Shown here: positions 2,387 through 46,190 of the stretch, piece by piece | Position numbering within the stretch: the first letter of the stretch is position 1 | How the letters are laid out: every line of letters starts with the position of its first letter | DNA from: an uncultured Bacilli bacterium | GTDB taxonomy: Bacteria > Bacillota_I > Bacilli_A > RF39 > UBA660 | Reading direction: 5' to 3' | Assembly: GCA_947627635.1 (NCBI GenBank) | Contig: CANQWT010000002.1 | Span: 1-58,403 of the forward strand | Length of the DNA: 58,403 nt | Made by a program: the position numbers and the translations under genes | The notes under the pieces: generated by a model | What the model was told of the DNA's origin: nothing | What the model saw: only the letters and a program-made list of their open reading frames with translations | Database searches by the model: none

Positions 2387-3190
2387 CTATTCAATTTTAC
2401 TTTTATGATAAAGATTTTGAAATTTATTTTTGGTACCTTTTCTAAAGAAACACAAATAACTACCAAGCCCTATTAAAGCTAAAGAAACAAGTTGGGCTAC
2501 CTTAAAGTTTCCTAGCATTAAACTATCTGTTCGTAAGGCTTCAATAAAAAATCTACCACAAGAATACCAAATCAAATAGCTACCAGTTAATTGTCCAATG
2601 TGCAAATACTTGTTTTTTCGAAGAAATAAAAGAACGAAAAATCCTGCCAAATCCCATAATGATTCATATAAAAAGGTTGGTTGATGATAGGCTCCATTGA
2701 TATACATACCCTCAATAATAAACTTAGGAAGACCCTGTGATACTAAAGATGCTCTACTAACAATTTTTCCAAAAGCTTCTCCATTAAAGAAATTGCCCCA
2801 TCTTCCTACCGCTTGTCCAATAAGTAAGCCTACTACAACAATATCTAATATTTTAAGGGTAGACTGTTTGTATTTCTTTGTATGATAGAGGATAGTCAGT
2901 CCTCCAAAAAGGATGCCTCCATGTATGGCAAGACCTCCTTCCCAAATTTGAAAAACTTCTAAAATATGATGACTATAGTAGGAAAAGTTAAAAAGGCAAT
3001 AATATAATCTTGCCCCAATAATTCCAAAAATTACGGTATAAAATGCCATGTTCAAAAAGAAATCTACAGAAATTTTTTGTTGTTTGATTTCTTTATAAAT
3101 CACTATCATTGCAAGAAGTACTCCTAAGAAGATAAAAAGAGAATACCAATAAATTTGAAAAAATCCTAAATCTAAAAATACTCTATTCAT
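2387..3190 (-). CDS. lgt: Prolipoprotein diacylglyceryl transferase
   Basis: Polytopic membrane protein with Lgt-like GGLAIHGG and GRWGNFFNGE blocks. Start moved to ATG 3190 (GAAAGG 9 nt upstream), which removes the overlap with the upstream ORF. Confidence 0.9.
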   Translation of the reverse strand: MNRVFLDLGFFQIYWYSLFIFLGVLLAMIVIYKEIKQQKISVDFFLNMAFYTVIFGIIGARLYYCLFNFSYYSHHILEVFQIWEGGLAIHGGILFGGLTILYHTKKYKQSTLKILDIVVVGLLIGQAVGRWGNFFNGEAFGKIVSRASLVSQGLPKFIIEGMYINGAYHQPTFLYESLWDLAGFFVLLFLRKNKYLHIGQLTGSYLIWYSCGRFFIEALRTDSLMLGNFKVAQLVSLALIGLGSYLCFFRKGTKNKFQNLYHKSKIE

Positions 3191-3611
3191 AAGTATGAAC
3201 CTTTCTAATAATTGGTTTAACAAAGAAGAAATCCATTAAAGCATTCATGACAGAAATTAAAATGGCAATAAAGAAAGCTATCCAAATATCTTCTAAGTTA
3301 AAGTGACTACCTAATATCCAGTCGGTAAGTTTTAAAATAAACAAGTTAATGCATGGATAAAAAAGCCCTAAAGTAAGTCCTGTAATAGGAATAGTCAAAG
3401 TAACTAAAAGTGGTTTAATTGTCTTATTTAAAATAACAATGATAATGACTGCTAGAACGCCATAAATATAAGGATGAGATAAATCAATATAAAAGGAATG
3501 AAATAAAGAGGAAACAAGTAAAAAAATAAGGGTATAACAGACTAGATAAAGCATCCAGTCAAAGAATATAAATAGACCTTTTTTCCCTTTTTTAAACAAG
3601 TTGTGCTTCAT
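3183..3611 (-). CDS. Small 4-TM membrane protein, YvlD / phage-holin-family-IV-like
   Basis: 142 aa; block LNKTIKPLLVTLTIPITGLTLGLF...INLF resembles the PF04020 core. Recognised from memory only. Confidence 0.55.
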   Translation of the reverse strand: MKHNLFKKGKKGLFIFFDWMLYLVCYTLIFLLVSSLFHSFYIDLSHPYIYGVLAVIIIVILNKTIKPLLVTLTIPITGLTLGLFYPCINLFILKLTDWILGSHFNLEDIWIAFFIAILISVMNALMDFFFVKPIIRKVHTYE

Positions 3612-20385: not shown

Positions 20386-20637
20386 TTATTTCAACATAAC
20401 TCTGCTTCCATTTTTAAGACCCGAAAATTTTACAATATTATTTAAGTTAATTAGTTTGCCATCCAAATCATTGTATAAAAAAGGATTTTCGATTATTTCA
20501 TAATTCCCTTCGGTCATCTCTTTAATGGACTGTTGAACAGTAGTCAAAGCATCACTTAGTTTGACATTGATAGGAAGAAAAATATCAAATTCCTCTTCTA
20601 AAGATAATACGAAAAATGTTACCAAAATTTTATCCAT
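20386..20637 (-). CDS. YukD/EsaB-like ubiquitin-fold T7SS accessory protein
   Basis: 83 aa; size, beta-grasp-like pattern and C-terminal SGLKNGSRVMLK resemble YukD/EsaB (..GI.NGD.L.L); lies in a T7SS context. Confidence 0.6.
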   Translation of the reverse strand: MDKILVTFFVLSLEEEFDIFLPINVKLSDALTTVQQSIKEMTEGNYEIIENPFLYNDLDGKLINLNNIVKFSGLKNGSRVMLK

Positions 20638-20730
20638 ACTATAACCTCTTCTTCTATTTTAATTTATTATAACATACAAGTAAAACTTTATCTACAAACA
20701 AAAAAAAGAAAATCAAATAATTCTCTTTTT

Positions 20731-21054
20731 TTAAAATAATTCTTCTAAATCATCTGTTTCAACATCTTCATTTTCTTCAATAACATAATCTTCCTGAGTA
20801 TCTTCTTCTTCAGGAACTTCAGCGAATTCAGGATCATTCTCAAACTCACTACTATCAATTTCTGGATCTGTCAACTCAGAAGCTTCATAATCCGCAGAAG
20901 CATCATTTTCAGCCAAAAGATTAACATTATTAGCATTTAGAAATCGAATTGCTGACTTCAAATCATCAGGCATATCATCTGCTATCATAATCTTTCCATC
21001 AGAATCCAAAAATCTACTAAGACGTTGTTTCATATTATCGTCAACTGTAATCAT
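20731..21054 (-). CDS. Small highly acidic hypothetical protein
   Basis: 107 aa; C-terminal half almost entirely D/E; follows the WXG100-like gene after 15 nt. Confidence 0.5.
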   Translation of the reverse strand: MITVDDNMKQRLSRFLDSDGKIMIADDMPDDLKSAIRFLNANNVNLLAENDASADYEASELTDPEIDSSEFENDPEFAEVPEEEDTQEDYVIEENEDVETDDLEELF

Positions 21055-21069
21055 ATCATTATCCTTTTA

Positions 21070-21354
21070 CTATAGAGCTGATCCACCTTGTACGGTATTA
21101 GATAAATGTTCGCTACAATTGTCTAAGTGATCTAATAAGACTTTATTGTGATCATAGAATGCTAATGTATTTGTAATCCATGCATAAGCACGTTCTCCAG
21201 ACCAGAAAGCAACTTCTCCATCACCTTTTTGAAGAGCCTCTAAATCTGTATTTAAAGCTTTCATTGCTCTTTGCACATTTGAAACTTCAGTATCAAGGTT
21301 TTTACATAGATTCTTAGCCTTAGCCTTATTATATCCACCTTTTTTCTTTGCCAT
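21070..21354 (-). CDS. WXG100-family (ESAT-6-like) T7SS substrate candidate
   Basis: 94 aa; predicted helix-turn-helix with central W-S-G (residues 51-53, FWSGERA); strong RBS; near essC. Confidence 0.6.
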   Translation of the reverse strand: MAKKKGGYNKAKAKNLCKNLDTEVSNVQRAMKALNTDLEALQKGDGEVAFWSGERAYAWITNTLAFYDHNKVLLDHLDNCSEHLSNTVQGGSAL

Positions 21355-21372
21355 TATTATTCCTCCTTACTT

Positions 21373-21750
21373 TTATTCATTTGTCATACTATTAACAAGA
21401 TTTTCAAGCTGTGTAATACGTTGATCTAACAATTTAATTGTATAATCTTTAGTATCAGCTTCGAACTTAGATGTTAAAGTATTTAATCTATTACCTGCTG
21501 CAGTAGCTTGACTTTTACTTTTCTTAGCCCAACCTTTAAAGGCATCAGCATAGCTACCTTTTACAATTTTTTGTTGTACTGCTTTAGTCATCAATGTATT
21601 GATATTTGTCAAAGATGTTTTAATTGCAGTAAATTGTTTTGCCATATCTTGTTCGTATCTTGTAGCATTATCTGGGTCTAAATAAAGTTCTCCTTTATTT
21701 ACAGTAGGTTTGATTTTAGTCGTTGCTGTTCCTAGACTATATTTTGCCAT
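21373..21750 (-). CDS. Small helical protein, candidate T7SS substrate or partner
   Basis: 125 aa, all-helical-looking, first gene of the WXG operon, RBS GGAGGAG. Family not recognised. Confidence 0.5.
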   Translation of the reverse strand: MAKYSLGTATTKIKPTVNKGELYLDPDNATRYEQDMAKQFTAIKTSLTNINTLMTKAVQQKIVKGSYADAFKGWAKKSKSQATAAGNRLNTLTSKFEADTKDYTIKLLDQRITQLENLVNSMTNE

Positions 21751-21776
21751 TTTTTTCTCCTCCTATCTTTTTATTC

Positions 21777-21805
21777 ATCATAGCAAATTATTTTATCATT
21801 GGCAA
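21777..21805 (-). promoter_or_regulatory. Sigma-A-type promoter for the 125-aa/WXG100 operon
   Basis: Minus strand: TTGCCA - 17 nt - TATGAT with TGC extension (TGCTATGAT); about 25 nt upstream of the start codon. Confidence 0.55.
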
Positions 21806-21876
21806 GTACCCTTTATGAATATTTGACAAAAAAATGTAAATTTATTAAAAAAAAGAAAAAAAGAGAATATTATGGA

Positions 21877-21905
21877 TTGACAATTTCGACAATCTGTTTT
21901 ATATT
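21877..21905 (+). promoter_or_regulatory. Near-consensus sigma-A promoter of candidate sRNA 1
   Basis: TTGACA (21877-21882) - 17 nt - TATATT (21900-21905). Confidence 0.7.
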
Positions 21906-21909
21906 ATAA

Positions 21910-22114
21910 GTGTATTCTAGCTAAGACTATTTTAGTCCGATGCAGTTAAATATGCTATGCATATTGCAAAAGTGTTTACCACACTAGAATACACTGTAAT
22001 TAGTAGGAGAGAGAAACTCCGATAAGAACAGTTACCAATTCTACTGATAATAGTATTGATAACTTGTTAAACTAGTATTTTTATACTATGAGATTACTTC
22101 GTAATCTCTTTTTT
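21910..22114 (+). ncRNA. Candidate structured sRNA 1 (about 205 nt), unclassified family
   Basis: Consensus promoter just upstream. 11-bp closing helix GTGTATTCTAG (21910-21920) / CTAGAATACAC (21984-21994) encloses two small hairpins. Conserved TAATTAGTAGGAGAGAGAAACTCC (21997-22020), a second long imperfect hairpin, then terminator GAGATTAC-TTC-GTAATCTC + T6 (22090-22114). No ORF with an RBS. Confidence 0.55.
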
Positions 22115-22200
22115 GTGCATTAAATCAATATGATATTTTTCTTGTAAAACTTAATATTGTGTTTCATTAAAAATGATTAAAATATTCTGATAAATTTTAG

Positions 22201-22250
22201 AAACAAAAAAGAGGAGTACTCTACCAAATGACCAATGGTTAGTCTCCTCC
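22201..22250 (-). terminator. Intrinsic terminator of the orphan minus-strand unit downstream of essC
   Basis: GAGGAG...CTCCTC outer stem (22211-22216 / 22244-22249) with inner ACCA/TGGT pairing, followed on the minus strand by TTTTTTGTTT. Confidence 0.5.
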
Positions 22251-22622
22251 AAAAAATGTAACACATTTCATTCTACTCTAAAATGTTAAAAAACACTTTA
22301 ATATATTGTAGAAGAATGTTTCTTTTTTTCACTATTAAATATCCTGATAAAATATCTAATAGCTGGTTTGCAGTAGCTAGAAAAACACTTAGCTAATTCA
22401 ATATTGTGTTCGTCTCTGGTCATTTGACGCTAGCCTGTTTACCCATATAGTTTTCCTTCTATATCCTGTAATTCTAGTATACGTTTGATAAGAATAATCG
22501 TTTTGAATCTAACCCTTAGCTAGATTCAAAACACTTCAAGTAATCATCTTTTTAATCATTAAATTTCAATAAATTAAAACTTAATATCAAATAGATTTTT
22601 ACTATCGCTATCATATACTAAC
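22201..22622 (-). ncRNA. Orphan about-420-nt transcription unit without a convincing ORF; contains a degenerate third copy of the sRNA element
   Basis: Bounded by a consensus promoter (22629-22658) and a terminator (22201-22250). Internal perfect 12-bp hairpin (22500-22511 / 22521-22532). Shares AAGTGT..TCTAGCTAAG and ACTAGAAT strings with sRNA 1. Confidence 0.35.
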
Positions 22623-22628
22623 AACTAC

Positions 22629-22658
22629 ATTATACTGGTATCTTCTTGTTTTTGTCAA
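22629..22658 (-). promoter_or_regulatory. Consensus sigma-A promoter immediately downstream of the essC stop
   Basis: Minus strand: TTGACA (22658-22653) - 18 nt - TATAAT (22634-22629). Confidence 0.65.
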
Positions 22659-22673
22659 TAGCTTTTAAAACTT

Positions 22674-25600
22674 TTATATTTTTTTTACAAATTTGACATA
22701 TTCACTTTGTCCATTCTTTACTAAAACAGCAATATCATTTGTCATTTTAACATTATCATTATAAGCATCTGGAGCATCTAGTATATTTTGTGAATCAAAT
22801 CCTCGACCTATCCATATTCCAGAAGATAAATCCACTAAATTAGAAATGTCACCATTCTTTAATTCATCACACATACTTGCTGTATCATATAAAACAAACT
22901 TAAAACTTTCATTTTTCTTAGCCAAATCAACTAATTCTCCTATATTTATAATCGAAGTTTCTTCGTTGTTTAACTCTCCTATATGTTTACTTAATTCTTC
23001 ATAACCTAATACAATAATCATAAAACGATTTGGACTTTGTCCTTGTTCATTATATTTAATAACATTTTTTTCTAAGACTGGCATAATTTTAGCAAAGCCA
23101 CCATCATAAAATTTGACTTTTTCAGGAATATCCAAATCCATATCTTTTAAAGCATTTAATACAATAATATTTACATTCTCTAAAGATGAACACATCGTAA
23201 TAAAAAAGTTAAAGAAAGGAATGACATCTTTTACTCTTGAAGAAGATATTACTGTGATACTTTTTTCTAGGTTGAAATATCCAGGTTGTGCTGTTTGAAT
23301 ATTGATACCAATTGGTATTTGTTTTAATGTTGTTATATAGTTTTTAATATCACTTAAGCTAACTTCTTGTGGTACAAATGGAACAGGAGGAGCTTTTTTT
23401 ACTAAGAATTTATCTAGTTGTTCAATTACATAACTTAATACTTTAGGTTCCTCTTCCTCACTAGTGATTAAAGGTACTTGAAATTCATAAGGTTCATCAA
23501 TTTGTATAAGACCTCTACCTGGTGTTTTATTTGGAATAGGAGGTTTATCAAAGTACATTGCATAATCTGTAATATCAACCATATTTAACATGATTTTTTG
23601 TGGGAAATTATTCTCAGCCATAAATCCAAGAGATGAAGTTGATGTTGAAGTTACAATAAAGTAAATTCCAAATTTAGAACAATTTCTTGTAAATGGAACG
23701 AATTTCTCATCGTATAAATCTTGATAAACTTCTTTAAATACTTCTATATCATATATAATAACAATGATATTAGCAAATGGACTTTTATGCTGTTTAACAT
23801 CTGTTAGAAAGTCAGAACCATTTTCAGCATAGTACTTTTGCCTTTTACTTTTTTCCGCTTCTAACATATAAAATAAGTAAGTAATCTTATTTCCATCTGC
23901 AATGGTTAAAACATCACCAACCTGTGGAGCTTTTTGAAATTTTCTAAGTTTTTCTGTTCCAAAATCTACAATATAAAACTGAACTTCTTCGGCATTATGG
24001 TTAATAATACTTGAATAAATTAGTGTTGATAATAAAGTTGATTTACCACTACCACTAGCTCCAACTAAATATGCATTTCCTTCTGTCGTAATAGGCAAAT
24101 GAACATAATCTTGTTTTTGATTTTTAGGATCATCATATTCGCCAATTACTGGGTCAATATCATAAAGAGTTGGTAAAACATTATATTTTTTAACAATCGT
24201 ATCATAGTATACATTTTGTGGAAGACTATCCAACCAAAGTTGTTGATAAGTAAAATGCTCTTGATTTGCCACATCAATGATATATTTTAGAATGTTAATA
24301 AGCTCTTCTCCTAAATCTTCTTTTTTCTTTGTAGATTGTCCTTGTTTATTATCAATGCTTTTATAGTTTTCACCGATATTACTTATAAAAGAGATACTGT
24401 TATCAATTTTAGATGTAACTGTTTCTGTTGGTGTATAGGCAATACCAGAATAGCCTGACTGGCCTTCCGTAAAAAATTCATCATAACCTATTTGTAAAAA
24501 GAAACGCCCTGAATCTTTTAAATATGCGGCATCAGGTCTTTGTATCATTTCATTACTATCATCTGTTGTTTGAACTTTACAACAAACTTTAAATCTTGAG
24601 TTCGACCATATTTGTTCATCAACTACACCACTAGGCTTTTGAGTTGCTAAAATCAAATGAATTCCAAGGCTTCGTCCAATACGAGCAGTACTGACTAATT
24701 CATCCATAAAGTCTGGCTGTTGACTTTTTAATTCTGCGAACTCGTCGCAAATAATAAACAAATGGGAAAGAGGTTCTTCCAAAGTACCTTCTCTATGGAG
24801 TTTCTGATATTTATAAATGTCCATATTACCAGTATCTAATTTCTCTTTGGCTTCATTAAAAATTCTTTGTCGTCTTTGTAGTTCACTATTGATGGATACT
24901 AAAGTACGGTTCATTTCAGATTTATCAAGGTTCGTAATTGTACCAACTAAATGTGGAAGTTTCATTCTCGTCTTTCTATTTTCGAAAGCACCGGCTAGAC
25001 CTCCACCTTTATAGTCGATCAATACAAATTGTACTTCATCAGGACTATAATTCACCGCAAGAGATAAAATATAAGTAATGATAAACTCTGATTTACCACT
25101 TCCGGTCATACCTGCAATTAAACCATGAGGTCCATGTTTTGTTTCATGCAAGTCTAAAGAAATAATATTTCCTTTTGAATCTACTCCAATTGGTGCTGCT
25201 AAAGTTGTCGTTACATTAGAATTTTTCCAACGATTTAAAATGTTTAACTGTTCTATTTTTCCTACTCCATACATCTCAAGAAAACCTAGTCTTGTTGGTA
25301 AACTTCCTTGTTGATCTTTTGTAACTTGAATCGGAATATTGTTAATTAGTTTCACATAATAATTAAAGTCAATTGCATCACTTAAAAACTCTGGAGTAAA
25401 GTTATGAATATTTTTTTCTTCCATTTCTGCTTTAAAAATACTTGCTTGTTTCTCATTATAATCTATGAAATTATCACATCCATCTGGAATATCGGTTAGC
25501 TTTTGACCAAACATCATAATTCCAAATCCAATATCATCACTGTTGTCAAGAACATTTTCCACAATTTTTAGATTTCGATACATTTCAATATGATCAGATA

Positions 25601-27257
25601 TAATTAAATAAAAGGGAATTTTTCCTTTTTTACTATTATCATTTGATTTATTGTTGGCACTGCGTTGATTAAATATTCGCACCAAATAGGTTGAAATATT
25701 TTCAGCATCTTGTAAATTTGTGGCAAAAAATCGCATTGATTTATCATTATCCCAACAATGATTTAAATTTTTTAACTTCATTAAATTAGAACTGGTATCA
25801 CTTGTTAAGATGACTAATTTTAAGTTTGCATAATCATGAAAAGTAAGTAGTTGTAATAAAATCGCATTCATATAACTGGTGTAATTTTTAGCATTATTGA
25901 TAAATGCTAAACTTTTTTCTTTATTTAAAGAAATACTAAAAGGAACATCATTGACATATTTAAATTCATCTAACAACTGATCAATATCATCTAATAATTT
26001 ATCTTTTGACTGAACAAAATCAGGTTTATCATAATTGATTTCACAGTCCAAAAGAACTCTACCTTTTCCTAAACGAACACTTAAAAAATCATCTTGTTCA
26101 ATTCCTCTTGAAAATAATGCTGAAGTTCTATTTTGTATAATATCTGCACATTGTTCTAAAGACACATTATTAAATTCAAGTGTCATTTTTTGTTCATTAC
26201 GACTAGCTTCTAAAACTTTTCTTTTCTTCTTTAAATACTTTGTATAAACATGTATTCTTCTTCGTTCTACTACAGTTCTTCTTATTTTAGATGCAAAGCG
26301 TTCTACAAAAGGCCAAAGAATAGATACAATTAGCATAACAACACACATTACAAGTGATGTTACAATAGTCTCTTTATTGCTTTCTCCTTTTTGATAACTC
26401 TGAATAGAATAATAAGCTTGTAAAACAGAAGTTAAACTCATTAGTCCAGAAGGAACAATTTGTAATAGAAGTGATCCTTCATCAGTTCTATCTTTTTCAT
26501 TAGGACTTGTAATAGTCAAATGTAAAGTATTGATTTTCTTTCTAAATATAGGTGATTTGTTAAAATATTCATTTGTCTCATAGAAATCTTTATATACTTC
26601 ATTATGAATTTCTCGGTCTCTTTCTGAAAGATAAGCAATTTCATCTGTAAGCTTATTATTAAAGAAATATGCATTATCTAAAGGAGATTTAATAAATATA
26701 GTTTTTCCACAAACTACAATTTTTAAACCCATGATAAAAAGAGTATCTAAATTTGAAAGACGTGCAGATGTTTTATTTGCTTTATTCACATAAACAGGAA
26801 CTTGAACATTTAAATTCTTATAAGACCAATAACCATTTTGATAAGTTAATTCTACTTGTTTTTCAGCAATACTTGGAAAACTATAAACAATATCGCATCC
26901 TTCTTTACCTACTGTTAAAGTACAAGTATCTTGACTAAGAGTTTTTCCTATATAACCTTTTTCTAAAGCTGGAGAAATATAAAGAAGTAAATTCTCAGTT
27001 TTATAGACATTTAAAGAATAGAAATTATATTCTTTTAATTCAATATTTTCTGCATATTGTCCATTATAGAAGATTTGCATATCCTCATTTGACTTCATAA
27101 ACCACTTTTCGTCATTATAGGCATAAATATTAACAAGACTTCTTTTTATTCCATTAGTGTCATAGTCAAAAAGGACATAGTTACCTGATACTGTTTTAGG
27201 CAATCTAAAAGTAAATATTCGATCGCTATGTATAATATATATCAGCATACTCTTCAC
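22674..27257 (-). CDS. essC: Type VII secretion FtsK/SpoIIIE-family ATPase EssC (YukB-like)
   Basis: 1527 aa; N-terminal FHA-like region, two TM segments, ATPase modules with GMTGSGKSE and GASGSGKST Walker A motifs, and a degenerate third module. Likely true start is ATG 27248 (GGGG SD); 27257 is GTG. Confidence 0.9.
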   Translation of the reverse strand: MKSMLIYIIHSDRIFTFRLPKTVSGNYVLFDYDTNGIKRSLVNIYAYNDEKWFMKSNEDMQIFYNGQYAENIELKEYNFYSLNVYKTENLLLYISPALEKGYIGKTLSQDTCTLTVGKEGCDIVYSFPSIAEKQVELTYQNGYWSYKNLNVQVPVYVNKANKTSARLSNLDTLFIMGLKIVVCGKTIFIKSPLDNAYFFNNKLTDEIAYLSERDREIHNEVYKDFYETNEYFNKSPIFRKKINTLHLTITSPNEKDRTDEGSLLLQIVPSGLMSLTSVLQAYYSIQSYQKGESNKETIVTSLVMCVVMLIVSILWPFVERFASKIRRTVVERRRIHVYTKYLKKKRKVLEASRNEQKMTLEFNNVSLEQCADIIQNRTSALFSRGIEQDDFLSVRLGKGRVLLDCEINYDKPDFVQSKDKLLDDIDQLLDEFKYVNDVPFSISLNKEKSLAFINNAKNYTSYMNAILLQLLTFHDYANLKLVILTSDTSSNLMKLKNLNHCWDNDKSMRFFATNLQDAENISTYLVRIFNQRSANNKSNDNSKKGKIPFYLIISDHIEMYRNLKIVENVLDNSDDIGFGIMMFGQKLTDIPDGCDNFIDYNEKQASIFKAEMEEKNIHNFTPEFLSDAIDFNYYVKLINNIPIQVTKDQQGSLPTRLGFLEMYGVGKIEQLNILNRWKNSNVTTTLAAPIGVDSKGNIISLDLHETKHGPHGLIAGMTGSGKSEFIITYILSLAVNYSPDEVQFVLIDYKGGGLAGAFENRKTRMKLPHLVGTITNLDKSEMNRTLVSINSELQRRQRIFNEAKEKLDTGNMDIYKYQKLHREGTLEEPLSHLFIICDEFAELKSQQPDFMDELVSTARIGRSLGIHLILATQKPSGVVDEQIWSNSRFKVCCKVQTTDDSNEMIQRPDAAYLKDSGRFFLQIGYDEFFTEGQSGYSGIAYTPTETVTSKIDNSISFISNIGENYKSIDNKQGQSTKKKEDLGEELINILKYIIDVANQEHFTYQQLWLDSLPQNVYYDTIVKKYNVLPTLYDIDPVIGEYDDPKNQKQDYVHLPITTEGNAYLVGASGSGKSTLLSTLIYSSIINHNAEEVQFYIVDFGTEKLRKFQKAPQVGDVLTIADGNKITYLFYMLEAEKSKRQKYYAENGSDFLTDVKQHKSPFANIIVIIYDIEVFKEVYQDLYDEKFVPFTRNCSKFGIYFIVTSTSTSSLGFMAENNFPQKIMLNMVDITDYAMYFDKPPIPNKTPGRGLIQIDEPYEFQVPLITSEEEEPKVLSYVIEQLDKFLVKKAPPVPFVPQEVSLSDIKNYITTLKQIPIGINIQTAQPGYFNLEKSITVISSSRVKDVIPFFNFFITMCSSLENVNIIVLNALKDMDLDIPEKVKFYDGGFAKIMPVLEKNVIKYNEQGQSPNRFMIIVLGYEELSKHIGELNNEETSIINIGELVDLAKKNESFKFVLYDTASMCDELKNGDISNLVDLSSGIWIGRGFDSQNILDAPDAYNDNVKMTNDIAVLVKNGQSEYVKFVKKI

Positions 27258-27279
27258 CCCAGATTATCTATTCTCTTAT

Positions 27280-27308
27280 ATCATAGCATTTTTACCTTTA
27301 AAAAGAAA
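27280..27308 (-). promoter_or_regulatory. Possible extended -10 promoter for essC
   Basis: TGCTATGAT on the minus strand (27288-27280), the same 9-mer as the WXG operon promoter; poor -35 (TTTCTT). Confidence 0.35.
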
Positions 27309-27374
27309 GAAGAACTTAACAAAATACAGGAGAAATTTCAAAAAAAAGATACTGTCTACTTTAGTAAAGTTTTA

Positions 27375-27403
27375 TTGACATAGTGGAATAAATTCCCTAT
27401 ACT
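27375..27403 (+). promoter_or_regulatory. Near-consensus sigma-A promoter of candidate sRNA 2
   Basis: TTGACA (27375-27380) - 17 nt - TATACT (27398-27403). Confidence 0.7.
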
Positions 27404-27407
27404 TTAA

Positions 27408-27579
27408 GTGTATCCTAGGTAAGGCATTTTAGCTATTTATACCTTTATGGTGTGCCCTAGGATATATAATTAGTAGGAGAGGAATCTCCAAAATAGGGCG
27501 ACTAGTTAATTTTATCTCGATAGAGTTAGCTAGTTGTTGAAAAGACAAAAAAAGAGATACACAAGTCTCTTTTTATTTT
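27408..27579 (+). ncRNA. Candidate structured sRNA 2 (about 170 nt), paralog of sRNA 1
   Basis: Starts GTGTATCCTAGG. Closing helix TATCCTAGG (27411-27419) / CCTAGGATA (27456-27464) shows a compensatory T:A to C:G change relative to sRNA 1. Has the identical 15-mer TAATTAGTAGGAGAG (27467-27481) then GAATCTCC. Second imperfect hairpin, then a weak terminator AGAGA...TCTCT + T-run shared with convergent veg. Confidence 0.5.
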
Positions 27580-27806
27580 CCAATTATTTCCAAACTTTCC
27601 GTTAAAATATCACTGTAAGAAAAAGATTTTAAGGGTGCTAGAGAAGAACTAGGTTGTATGACAAATATTTTAGAATAAGTTTCTATAATTTTTCCTTCAA
27701 ATTCTTCGATTTGATTTCTCGCACCATTATATTTAAAAGACAATTTCTTTCCTGTCTGAAGTTTTATAGTTTCCCTTACTTTATCAATATTCAAAAATTG
27801 CATCAC
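27573..27806 (-). CDS. veg: Veg protein (biofilm/sporulation-associated small protein)
   Basis: 77 aa; aligns with B. subtilis Veg (..G.KL..K.NGGR...E..G.I.ETY.SVFVIQ...SYSY.DILTE.VE). Confidence 0.85.
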   Translation of the reverse strand: MMQFLNIDKVRETIKLQTGKKLSFKYNGARNQIEEFEGKIIETYSKIFVIQPSSSLAPLKSFSYSDILTESLEIIGK

Positions 27807-27928: not shown

Positions 27929-29929
27929 ATGGAAAAACAAGAAGTCATTGAGGCTATCCATACCTTGAGGAGATACAGTACAGAAACAAATAGAATTGAA
28001 GCAAAATCTGCATTATTAGGATTTCCTAAAAAATGTTACGATACGTTTTCAAGTTTTTCTAATAAATATGGTGGAATGATTATCTTTGGTATTCGTGAAG
28101 AAAACAATTTTTCCACAGAAGGTGTTTATAACATTAAAGACTTACAAAAACAAATTACTGCACTATGTACTGATGCTATGGAGCCTTCCTTGCGTTGTGA
28201 TATATTGCCATTGGAATTTGAAAACAAAAAAATTTTAGCAGTAAAAATAGATGAGTTAAATTCAGCAATGAAACCTTGTTACTATAAACCTAAAGGTCTT
28301 AAAAAAGGGTCTTATACAAGAGAAGGCGATAGAGATGAGCCAATGACGGACTACGAAATTTATGCAATTCAAAGTTATAATGACCATATTGTAGAAGATA
28401 AAAGACCAAATAGAAGTGCAACTTTAGAAGATTTAAATACGGAACAGTTAAATTCCTATATCCAAAGAATAAAAAATGAAAAGCCTAATTTTTCAAAAAA
28501 CTCTTTTGAAAAGTGCTTAAAATTATCTGGTATTACAGATACAACTGATAGTACAATTCTTCCGACACTCGCAGGTACACTCATTTTTGGTGAATATCCT
28601 CAAGCGTTTTATCCACAGTTGTTTGTGGCATGTACTGTTATTCCAGGAATTGATATCGGTGAAGTAAGTGAATTAGGAGAAAGATTTTTGGACAACAAAC
28701 GTGTAGAAGGAACCATTGAAGAAATGTTAGAAGAAACCATGAATTTTTTACGAAGAAATATGAAAACAAGAGTGATTATAAATTCAAATGGAAAAAGAAT
28801 CAATAAAACAGAATATCCACTAAAAGCTTTAAGAGAAGCTGTTGCTAATGCACTCATTCATAGAGATTATAGTAAGCAAACAGAAAATGCTTATATTTCT
28901 GTATACATGTATGCTGATAGAATTGAAATTTTAAATCCAGGTGCACTTTTTGGAACAAATAAATTGGAAAAACTTGGAACTGCAACAGTCATGGAAGCTA
29001 GAAATCCTAATATTGTTAGAATACTAGAGGAGAAAGGTGCTGTCATTGAAAATAGACATTCTGGAATTCCTACTATGAAAAGAGAAATGAGAAAATATGG
29101 TTTACCTGACCCAGAGTTCTATGAAGAACGAGGAAGTTTTAAAGTAGTTTTTAGAAATACCTCTTTGGAAGAGGAAGGTGGACAAGTGGAACAGCAAATG
29201 AAGCACAATTTCCAGCAAAGTGGACAAGTGGAACAGCAAATGGAGCAGAATTTCCAACAAACTGGACAAGTGGAACAGCAAATGGAGCAGAATTTCCAAC
29301 AAACTGGACAAGTGGAACAGCAAATGGAGCAAAATTCCCAACAAACTGGACAAGTGGAACAGCAAATGGAGCACAATTTTCAACAAACTGGACAAGTGGA
29401 ACAGCAAATTGAACAAAATTTCCAACAAAGTGGACAAGTAGAGCAACAAATGGAACAGAATTTTCAACAAAGTGAGCAAGTAGAGCAACAAAATTCAACT
29501 AAAAAACTTCAAAATACTGTGCTAAAATACTGTGCTACTCCAAAAAACATTAAAGAAATTAGTCAATATTTAAATATTACTTCTAGGCAATATTTATCCA
29601 CATATATTATAAATCCTCTTATTAAAGAGAAAAAATTAGTTTATGCTATAGAAGAAAGTATACACTCAAGAAATCAAAAATATATCTCTAACAAAGGAAT
29701 AAATTTGCAAAATCGAAAAAATATTAGTGAATATAAGAACATGATTTTAAAGTTTTGTTCATCACCGAAGAGTTTTAAAGAAATTTGCCAACATTTAAAA
29801 ATATATTCTAGAAAATATATATCTTCAAATATCATAAAACCACTTATTAAAGAAGGAAAACTAACATATACAAACCCTGAAAAAATTCAGGTAAAAAACC
29901 AAAAATATATAACAGTACAAAAAGATTAG
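27929..29929 (+). CDS. AlbA_2 (Schlafen-like) + HATPase_c_4-type putative DNA-binding/regulatory protein with internal 14-aa tandem repeats and two C-terminal wHTH-like modules
   Basis: 666 aa; N-terminus ...ETNRIEAKSA... and ...ALREAVANALIHRDY... typical of 'divergent AAA / putative DNA-binding' proteins; duplicated C-terminal LK[YF]C..PK..KEI.Q.L... modules. Confidence 0.7.
   Translation: MEKQEVIEAIHTLRRYSTETNRIEAKSALLGFPKKCYDTFSSFSNKYGGMIIFGIREENNFSTEGVYNIKDLQKQITALCTDAMEPSLRCDILPLEFENKKILAVKIDELNSAMKPCYYKPKGLKKGSYTREGDRDEPMTDYEIYAIQSYNDHIVEDKRPNRSATLEDLNTEQLNSYIQRIKNEKPNFSKNSFEKCLKLSGITDTTDSTILPTLAGTLIFGEYPQAFYPQLFVACTVIPGIDIGEVSELGERFLDNKRVEGTIEEMLEETMNFLRRNMKTRVIINSNGKRINKTEYPLKALREAVANALIHRDYSKQTENAYISVYMYADRIEILNPGALFGTNKLEKLGTATVMEARNPNIVRILEEKGAVIENRHSGIPTMKREMRKYGLPDPEFYEERGSFKVVFRNTSLEEEGGQVEQQMKHNFQQSGQVEQQMEQNFQQTGQVEQQMEQNFQQTGQVEQQMEQNSQQTGQVEQQMEHNFQQTGQVEQQIEQNFQQSGQVEQQMEQNFQQSEQVEQQNSTKKLQNTVLKYCATPKNIKEISQYLNITSRQYLSTYIINPLIKEKKLVYAIEESIHSRNQKYISNKGINLQNRKNISEYKNMILKFCSSPKSFKEICQHLKIYSRKYISSNIIKPLIKEGKLTYTNPEKIQVKNQKYITVQKD
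29180..29494 (+). repeat. In-frame 42-bp tandem repeat, about 7.5 copies (GQVEQQMEQNFQQT units)
   Basis: Units start at 29180, 29222, 29264, 29306, 29348, 29390 and 29432, with a partial eighth copy; copies differ by single substitutions. Confidence 0.9.
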
Positions 29930-45974: not shown

Positions 45975-46190
45975 TTTATCATAACATAAGGGTCCTATAG
46001 GACTGTACCACCTTATTTTATAATAAACTTATTATACACTTATTTTCGTTAACGCCTGTCTACGATTATGCCTACCTATCGACACAATAGTTCAGAAGCC
46101 ATATTCATTTACAGAATTTACTTGCTTTCACCAGTTACAAGTTCTCTTCTTGAAATTCTTTGTAAATAAACTCTTCCTCATCACTTCTTG
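45975..46190 (-). promoter_or_regulatory. T-box leader (Met specifier) upstream of metG
   Basis: Minus strand: GTGATGAGGAAGAG (GA/K-turn-like), AGAGAAC...CTGGTGAAAGC (AG bay / distal loop-like), AAATGAA (AUG specifier followed by a purine), and T-box core AAGGTGGTACAGTCC (46014-46000). Confidence 0.6.

Follow-up and report, generated by a model that had tools for sequence, protein, structure and literature searches.

Copy 2, a diverged RNA gene upstream of essC in an uncultured Bacilli bacterium, is a probable orphan of a split, PGK-like RNA family

The PGK RNA motif is listed in Rfam as RF03040, where it is typed as cis-regulatory, and its function is unknown (Weinberg et al. 2017, PMC5737381). 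In the present study we analysed a 58,403-nt stretch of DNA from an uncultured Bacilli bacterium (contig CANQWT010000002.1; hereafter the window) and an RNA gene at 27375–27579 on its plus strand, referred to as copy 2. It lies 118 bp upstream of and divergent from essC, a gene of a type VII secretion system (T7SS), and resembles a second RNA gene, copy 1, at the other end of essC. With moderate confidence, we regard copy 2 as a real RNA gene and as an orphan paralog within a split, PGK-like and T7SS-linked family, whose two RNAs we term RNA1 and RNA2. Apart from the paper that first described the PGK motif, the searchable literature yielded nothing on this motif, on RF03040 or on T7SS small RNAs (sRNAs), and no RNA partner for T7SSb.

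The RNA1 branch shares with PGK RNA the P2 hairpin GAGAAAG..AAACUC, the GAUAAG after P2, the P3 loop CUGAUAA, the AAACUCG before the terminator and hosts from low-GC animal-gut metagenomes. It differs in that the 5′ strand of the outer helix of RNA1, CUUAUC, is found on RNA2, as is UUAUCAG, which is not in RNA1's own terminator. Furthermore, RNA1 has a variable 5′ domain closed by a helix, P1, and the window copies are not located upstream of pgk. Copy 1 remains below the Rfam threshold, and copy 2 is unmatched and carries neither GAUAAG nor CUGAUAA.

Otherwise one-piece structured RNAs can occur in two pieces, as does the tmRNA of alpha-proteobacteria. The likeness is one of analogy only, in that a fold made by one molecule in some lineages is made by two base-paired pieces in others; RNA1 and RNA2, however, are separate genes with their own promoters and terminators and not parts of a processed permuted precursor. 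RNA–RNA recognition by kissing loops is known from ColE1 RNAI/RNAII and R1 CopA/CopT. RNA1 and RNA2 likewise have complementary 7-nt loops (CUGAUAA/UUAUCAG) on covarying stems, but they are not antisense transcripts of one locus, they have an extra linear 8-bp helix, and copy 2 has neither element. The sRNAs of the Qrr, LhrC and csRNA families are encoded in multiple copies whose paralogs have diverged on a common scaffold, and they act on mRNAs via a conserved single-stranded seed. Here, too, a genome has several paralogs, all of them equipped with a strong promoter and an intrinsic terminator of their own, whereas no mRNA target site is evident for the RNA1 copies and the conserved parts are structural. 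Loop-mediated assembly is, at least in part, the subject of a preprint on large ornate bacterial RNAs (bioRxiv 10.1101/2024.12.08.627333).

Copy 2 and its relation to copy 1

The two copies and the elements next to copy 2 are as follows.

27375..27403, plus strand: promoter of copy 2 (11/12 consensus match)
27408..27579, plus strand: copy 2 RNA, about 165 nt (minimum free energy fold; 19.8 bits with the R1 model described below, at 27449–27580)
27281..27289, minus strand: extended −10 element TGCTATGAT of the divergent essC promoter, read from sequence
27573..27803, minus strand: veg (PF06257, E 1.2e-15), convergent with copy 2, stop codon inside the terminator U-tract
21877..22114, plus strand: copy 1 (RNA1; R1 model 50.5 bits, E 8e-8; Rfam PGK 33.3 bits)

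The initial annotation had proposed an sRNA gene here, and its parts could be recovered from the sequence. The promoter (TTGACA 27375–27380, a 17-nt spacer and TATACT 27398–27403 on the plus strand) matches the consensus at 11 of 12 positions and was the sole strong sigma-A-type match of a promoter scan between 27200 and 27950. The proposed transcript begins with GTGTATCCTAGG at 27408, and its start is predicted near G27408–G27410. The closing helix P1 (27409–27419/27456–27466, 11–12 bp) encloses two small hairpins. It is followed by the 15-mer TAATTAGTAGGAGAG, which is present at 27467–27481 and, as claimed, also in copy 1 at 21997–22011; no other match exists in the window even if two mismatches are allowed. 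In copy 2 the 15-mer comprises the junction J1/2 and the 5′ strand of P2 (GGAGA 27476–27480/UCUCC 27485–27489). P3 is a 19-bp hairpin (27497–27515/27520–27538) with a GAUA loop, and the terminator consists of a hairpin (27550–27558/27565–27573) with a U-tract extending to 27579. Thus, the described architecture of a 5′ hairpin domain, conserved motif, second hairpin and terminator is present in full. The U-tract overlaps the veg stop codon at 27573–27575, in agreement with the suggestion that both genes have this terminator in common. Because the terminator has fewer than three G-C pairs, a simple terminator scan did not flag it. Copy 2 has the sigma-A-type promoter and intrinsic terminator of its own that are typical of the RNA1 branch, the latter being weak in G-C pairs.

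The predicted fold of copy 2 has a minimum free energy of −55.7 kcal/mol compared with −32.1 ± 3.7 kcal/mol in shuffled sequences (z = −6.4). P3 is considerably more stable in copy 2 (−19.9 kcal/mol, z −5.5) than in copy 1 (−7.7 kcal/mol). No tRNA or tmRNA was found in the window. A shared small open reading frame (ORF) or type I toxin was also considered and rejected, as the two copies have no small ORF in common on either strand.

Copy 1 has the same order of parts. Its promoter (TTGACA 21877, 17 nt, TATATT 21905) is followed by P1 (21910–21920/21984–21994, 11 bp), P2 (22006–22009/22017–22020), GAUAAGAA at 22021–22028, P3 with the 7-nt loop CUGAUAA at 22044–22050, AAACUAG and a terminator at 22090–22108. 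A colinear alignment of 21751–22135 with 27258–27600 scored 63.5, while the best of 748 other window segments reached 46.5 (mean 28.6, standard deviation 5.9) and the best of 300 shuffles 44. The aligned stretch includes the divergent ATCATAGCA element, the sRNA promoter, the 5′ strand of P1 (17/19) and the 15-mer, and continues through the terminator. Since this alignment is far above background, the copies are homologous, and copy 2 is a second, diverged copy (paralog) of copy 1. This supports the original view, in which copy 2 is a structured RNA that has diverged from its sister and is neither a recently duplicated piece of DNA nor a dispersed cassette.

The compensatory change noted in the closing helix is present: one U-A pair in P1 of copy 1 is C-G in copy 2. 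Other P1 changes comprise one gained G-C pair and two changes from G-C to G.U. In P3, three both-sided changes separate the copies, and 91.7% of the cells are paired in a model-fitted alignment, compared with at most 54% in slid register. The closing helix is real, as a metagenomic subfamily (see below) has a covarying helix in the same place (AU:8/GC:7 at pair 2). The P1 strands UUAUCCUAG/CUAGGAUAA of RNA1 in locus L160 (loci of other genomes are referred to by L numbers) are almost identical to P1 of copy 2; a MAFFT alignment of this RNA1 with copies 1 and 2 was misaligned and uninformative. Taken alone, the 15-mer is weak evidence. It had 24 matches in viral contigs and a chance match in one archaeal metagenome-assembled genome, all with unrelated flanks, and was rejected as a family signature. 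A strict pattern of the 5′ motif plus the 15-mer gave no match in JGI metagenomes.

The RNA1 branch and its partner RNA2

At gathering thresholds, Rfam detected only a T-box and a signal recognition particle (SRP) RNA in the whole window. The 3′ half of copy 1 matched PGK RNA over all 92 model positions with 33.3 bits (E 0.054), which is below the gathering threshold of 50.8, and copy 2 gave no match to this model at E ≤ 10. We scanned metagenomes with a pattern of the core common to copy 1 and the PGK consensus (GAGARAG-AAACTC, 15–35 nt, TACTGATAATA) and obtained at least 120 loci from gut and rumen samples. Rfam was applied to twenty of the loci and identified 15 bona fide PGK RNAs (52–98 bits) in 11 of them; the remaining nine have the same core and are sub-threshold. 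A large group of the sub-threshold sequences, type a, is built like the window copies, with its own TTGAC-17-TATAAT promoter and P1 around a variable 5′ domain. On the 3′ side of P1 there follow the junction UAAUUGUAAUU, P2, GAUAAG, P3 with the loop CUGAUAA, AAACUCG and the terminator. Covariation is seen in P1, in an inner hairpin, in P3 and in the terminator. Both window copies have P1 between the 5′ end and the segment before the UAAUUGUAAUU junction. Of the inner hairpin GAGAAAG-N-AAACUC, copy 1 has GGAGAGAGAAACUCC and copy 2 GGAGAGGAAUCUCC, which retains the stem but differs in the loop and the 3′ strand.

R1, a core covariance model, was built from 24 metagenomic type-a sequences and contains no window sequence; its calibration was shortened, so that E-values are rough. 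Searched against both strands of the 58-kb window, it found copy 1 with 50.5 bits (E 8e-8). The second-best match was copy 2 with 19.8 bits (E 0.12, or 0.012 in the 5.9-kb region 21800–27700), the third-best having 18.3 bits. The canonical T7SS-linked member of L042 scores 32.4 bits with the Rfam PGK model, which is on par with the 33.3 bits of copy 1. Copy 1 is thus a clear member of the unannotated RNA1 branch. The score of copy 2 makes it no more than a marginal member, but its pairwise homology to copy 1 provides an independent link. On balance, both copies appear to represent this branch of a PGK RNA superfamily in which RF03040 would be the one-piece form.

Uncultured Bacilli of low GC content from gut and rumen commonly carry members of the PGK-like superfamily. 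A position upstream of pgk on the same strand, which is a PGK feature, occurs in 21 of 126 metagenomic members among the matches listed and in neither window copy. One-piece PGK RNAs often come in twos, with both copies within 0.3–1.3 kb of the same contig (L051, L054, L061, L075, L094, L108, L128, L131). Variant P2 stems of one-piece PGK RNAs, such as GGG..CCC in L054, preserve pairing. The contig of L061 carries an OLE RNA (220 bits, 2740–3220, plus strand) in addition to two PGK RNAs; such hosts therefore also carry OLE.

A third RNA gene of the window, RNA2 on the minus strand, had been overlooked in the initial annotation.

22205..22658, minus strand: RNA2, partner RNA gene convergent with copy 1 (transcript 22622–22205, about 420 nt; R2 model 46.8 bits)

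Its promoter (TTGACA 22658, 18 nt, TATAAT 22629) directly follows the essC stop codon and matches the consensus at 12 of 12 positions. The RNA contains UUCUUAUC (22494→22487), a three-way junction, a hairpin with the loop UUAUCAG (22350→22344) and a terminator (GGAGGAG..CUCCUC and U6, about 22251→22205). A second TTATCAG is located on the minus strand at 22187–22193, just past this terminator, in the gap that separates RNA2 from the 3′ end of copy 1. RNA2 has no entry in Rfam. The RNA2 of canonical loci is located between RNA1 and p125 (a gene described below), has a promoter of its own and contains a three-way junction as well as a hairpin that covaries and presents UUUAUCAGA. R2, a covariance model of RNA2 that likewise contains no window sequences, matched 22494–22332 on the minus strand of the window with 46.8 bits (E 5e-8). 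One-piece PGK RNAs score 27–47 bits on R2 and 30–50 bits on R1. As R2 recognises them, RNA2 belongs to the PGK-like superfamily as a further branch.

Two sites of complementarity exist between RNA1 and RNA2. At site 1, NNGAUAAG of RNA1 can form an 8-bp helix with CUUAUCNN of RNA2 (GAUAAG/CUUAUC). A comparison of 19 distinct locus pairs among the matches listed revealed both-sided changes at six of ten positions, with 25 compensatory cells; examples are GACAAG/CUUGUC, AGUAAG/CUUACU, AAUAAG/CUUAUU and GCGAUAAG/CUUAUCGC. The covariation score was 0.344 compared with 0.179 ± 0.025 in shuffles, none of which (0/500) reached this value, and 83% of the cells are paired in register versus 31–53% when slid. 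G.U pairs are tolerated at this site, which points to pairing at the RNA level. Loci with the intermolecular site 1 helix include L042, L078, L049 and about 17 others among the matches listed, as well as the window. Site 2 consists of the RNA1 P3 loop CUGAUAA and the RNA2 loop UUAUCAG. Among the matches listed, UUAUCAG occurs at most 450 nt downstream in 63 of 76 family members and upstream in 10 of 76; in most of the exceptions it is found on the opposite strand, or else upstream on the same one. In the window, GAUAAGAA of copy 1 (22021–22028) matches UUCUUAUC of RNA2 (22494→22487) at site 1, and CUGAUAA of copy 1 (22044–22050) matches UUAUCAG of RNA2 (22350→22344) at site 2.

In one-piece PGK RNAs both contacts are intramolecular: the outer helix is part of the Rfam consensus, and UUAUCAG is in the loop of their own terminator. 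The outer helix CUUAUC...GAUAAG is absent within copy 1, its complement being on RNA2, while copy 1 does have the PGK loop (A)CUGAUAA(U) and an adjacent RNA2. The two genes are arranged in tandem in either order or convergently (the window and at least six other loci), and with such variable order and orientation the contacts must form between separate transcripts. Hence, we infer that RNA1 and RNA2 would associate in trans, in vivo as well, through an 8-bp helix and a 7-nt loop–loop contact. Such pairing would restore, between two molecules, the helix and the loop contact present internally in the one-piece PGK RNA. Expression of the RNAs is likewise predicted from sequence.

Of the parts of the family, copy 2 still has the promoter, P1, the 15-mer of the junction and P2, a long P3 hairpin and the terminator. 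The loss of both RNA2-pairing elements from this copy had also gone unnoticed. Where GAUAAG is expected it has AAAUAGGG, it has no CUUAUC, and its second hairpin is present with the loop GAUA, not CUGAUAA. No R2 match occurs near copy 2, and nothing complementary to its altered motifs is present in the window. With the pairing elements lost and no RNA2 nearby, copy 2 is best described as an orphan paralog. In the window, copy 1 and RNA2 would form a pair between essC and p125, and copy 2, upstream of essC, would stand apart. Most likely, it is still transcribed and folded but has ceased to pair with RNA2. Any factor recognising the P1–junction–P2 module may be shared with, or competed for by, copy 2; alternatively, copy 2 may be losing function.

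Neighbourhood of type VII secretion genes

The T7SS genes of the window are the following.

22674..27257, minus strand: essC, FtsK/SpoIIIE ATPase with an N-terminal FHA-like region (Pfam; homologs named type VII secretion protein EssC)
21373..21750, minus strand: p125, small helical protein (homologs follow RNA1–RNA2 in about 21 metagenomic loci among the matches listed)
21070..21354, minus strand: p94, WXG100-like protein with W51-S-G53 in the turn (top fold matches EsxA/EsxB)
20386..20637, minus strand: p83, small protein directly after EssC in relatives, YukD/EsaB-like by position only (no Pfam match)

Searches of Pfam, NCBIfam and PDB sequences gave nothing significant for p125, p94, p107 and p83. 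The model of p94 is a helix-turn-helix whose best PDB fold matches are EsxA/EsxB (prob 0.99, TM 0.66; the Foldseek E-values are weak for this short hairpin). A single-sequence AlphaFold2 model of p125 was of low confidence (pLDDT 57.6) and was not used. With EssC, p125, p94, an acidic p107 and p83, the system looks minimal (20386–21750, minus strand); ftsE/ftsX/pcsB-like genes follow.

The proposed link to T7SS proved real at the level of the family, as judged by recurrent synteny. Among the matches listed, homologs of p125 (32–61% identity) lie downstream of the RNAs on the same strand in about 21 loci; homologs of p94 are present in about 16, usually after the p125 homologs, and homologs of EssC in eight; p83 homologs were also found in eight, a different set. 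Copy 2 has this neighbourhood of EssC, p125, p94 and p83, which is a feature of the RNA1 branch. In L160, RNA2 and RNA1 are located between rplL and essC. Relatives found by means of EssC (50–55% identity, L158–L161, about 8.2–17 kb per locus) have the T7SS genes between rplL and a ybxB-like methyltransferase gene/rpoB, and in the window the cluster is beside veg/ksgA with the RNAs still accompanying it. The difference in site shows that the T7SS cluster has moved. As the RNA1–RNA2 pair travels with EssC, p125 and p94, we infer that it may act on or with the T7SS module. The RNAs are missing from several EssC loci and are therefore not a general component of T7SS.

The extended −10 element upstream of essC, ATCATAGCA at 27281–27289, was read in the sequence about 90 bp from the −35 of the sRNA as described. 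The corresponding distance at copy 1 (extended −10 at 21778–21786, sRNA −35 at 21877) is similar, and to this extent the supposed mirrored geometry of the two copies stands. It is, however, an inverted form of the usual arrangement, in which the RNA is co-oriented with the T7SS gene: RNA1 is located upstream of essC and co-oriented with it in L095, L115 and L160, while in the window each copy points the opposite way to the T7SS gene next to it. The 9-mer TGCTATGAT also precedes p125 (TTGCCA-17-TATGAT with TG in the promoter scan) and essC in L095, and the duplicated unit includes this divergent promoter.

Strains of the same species (L006/L007) with another EssC C-terminus and another substrate module have kept copy 2 with an identical RNA sequence. 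They are devoid of the whole 924-bp region holding copy 1, and RNA2 is missing as well, which speaks for the link of the RNAs to T7SS.

Other features of the window are a 666-aa protein gene between ksgA and veg and the two RNAs detected by Rfam.

27929..29929, plus strand: Schlafen/AlbA_2 + HATPase_c_4 + Fic-like_C protein
45985..46190, minus strand: T-box leader, 95.2 bits, upstream of a 511-aa gene
58186..58282, minus strand: small SRP RNA, 61.5 bits

The Schlafen gene is absent in L001, which has an identical Veg protein, and present in L006, and thus represents a variable insertion.

Alternative explanations and significance

Several observations weigh against the interpretation of copy 2 as an orphan member of a two-piece, T7SS-linked family. 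Copy 2 is without three family-invariant motifs (GAUAAG, the CUGAUAA loop and AAACUCG), its R1 score is marginal on its own, and with two paralogs alone the compensatory changes are not significant, as 156 of 500 shuffles reach the observed value. In L004, which has an identical Veg protein, a cassette of about 250 bp with copy 2 is precisely absent. The metagenomic set was ascertained by a pattern that fixes the sequences of P2 and the P3 loop and requires TACTGATAATA, and loci from related genomes are non-independent. The loop–loop contact consists of invariant sequences and is outside the reach of covariation. Only one of four protein-anchored EssC loci (50–55% identity), L160, carries the RNAs, none of the loci with the nearest EssC variants (L008–L011) has them, and superfamily members also adjoin pgk, murG and ftsW.

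Some of these points would suit a decaying relic, that is, a duplicated RNA1 gene that has lost its partner elements, is drifting and serves only as the veg terminator. The three lost motifs, the marginal score of 19.8 bits, the missing RNA2 partner or complementary motif nearby and the absence of the cassette from L004 would all be expected for such a gene. Yet its promoter is still near consensus (11/12), its four helices are intact with a P3 more stable than that of copy 1, the changes in P1 and P3 are compensatory rather than disruptive, and identity is concentrated in elements conserved throughout the family, the P1 5′ strand and the 15-mer. Decay is thus possible, though in our view unlikely. 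We consider improbable the model put forward in the initial annotation, namely a classical antisense sRNA whose 15-mer or other single-stranded stretch pairs with the essC or WXG mRNA leaders to control translation or stability of these mRNAs. The tight linkage to T7SS genes would agree with it, as would a 15-mer that is identical in both copies, partly located in a single-stranded junction and contains a Shine–Dalgarno-like GGAG. The 15-mer did not hold up as a T7SS seed: it is a junction with the 5′ strand of P2, conserved throughout the superfamily, including members away from T7SS upstream of pgk and murG. RNAduplex was run against 56 window leaders, and the T7SS leaders (z −0.66 to +1.39) did not stand out in this crude screen, which produced unrealistically long duplexes. 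Moreover, the sole covarying intermolecular pairing found is with RNA2 and not with an mRNA.

RF03040 is classed as Cis-reg in Rfam, 21 of 126 members (among the matches listed) are just upstream of pgk on the same strand, and highly conserved junction nucleotides are followed by a terminator. All this would fit a cis-regulatory leader or riboswitch that responds to a signal and governs the gene downstream of it through termination. Here, however, only the convergent 3′ end of veg lies downstream of copy 2 and only the convergent RNA2 downstream of copy 1, so that regulated read-through into a downstream ORF is not possible. T7SS-linked members precede another promoter and RNA gene instead of an ORF, and the pairing partner belongs to another transcript, whatever the order or orientation of the two genes; a leader function is therefore very improbable at this locus. 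Hardly credible is a mobile promoter cassette or miniature inverted-repeat transposable element (MITE) unrelated to T7SS. The presence/absence polymorphism of both cassettes among close relatives and the inclusion of the divergent promoter in the duplicated unit would be compatible with mobility, whereas the L004 junction shows neither inverted repeats nor target duplications, no further copies occur in the 58 kb, and RNA-level covariation including G.U pairs and recurrent T7SS synteny argue for an RNA gene family. Blastn searches of phage records gave only chance matches (E about 0.7–0.9), and the family pattern had no match in viral contigs.

The analysis also bears on the PGK motif itself, which would be one branch of a much larger family with at least 120 loci. 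Many members would be independent transcripts split into two genes whose pairing is backed by intermolecular covariation, and this argues against a simple cis-regulatory role. One PGK-like branch recurrently neighbours type VII secretion genes, and the regulation of T7SSb is poorly understood. Copy 2 would offer a natural "loss of pairing" variant of this branch. It is a tentative idea, and one we hold to be rather unlikely as a whole, that PGK-like RNAs exist in one- and two-piece forms of which the two-piece form is an RNA component or regulator dedicated to a minimal T7SSb substrate module, with copy 2 as a modulating orphan. If true, copy 2 might, for example, compete for a factor that binds the common P1–junction–P2 module, and the two-piece RNA would give a type VII system of Firmicutes its first described RNA partner.

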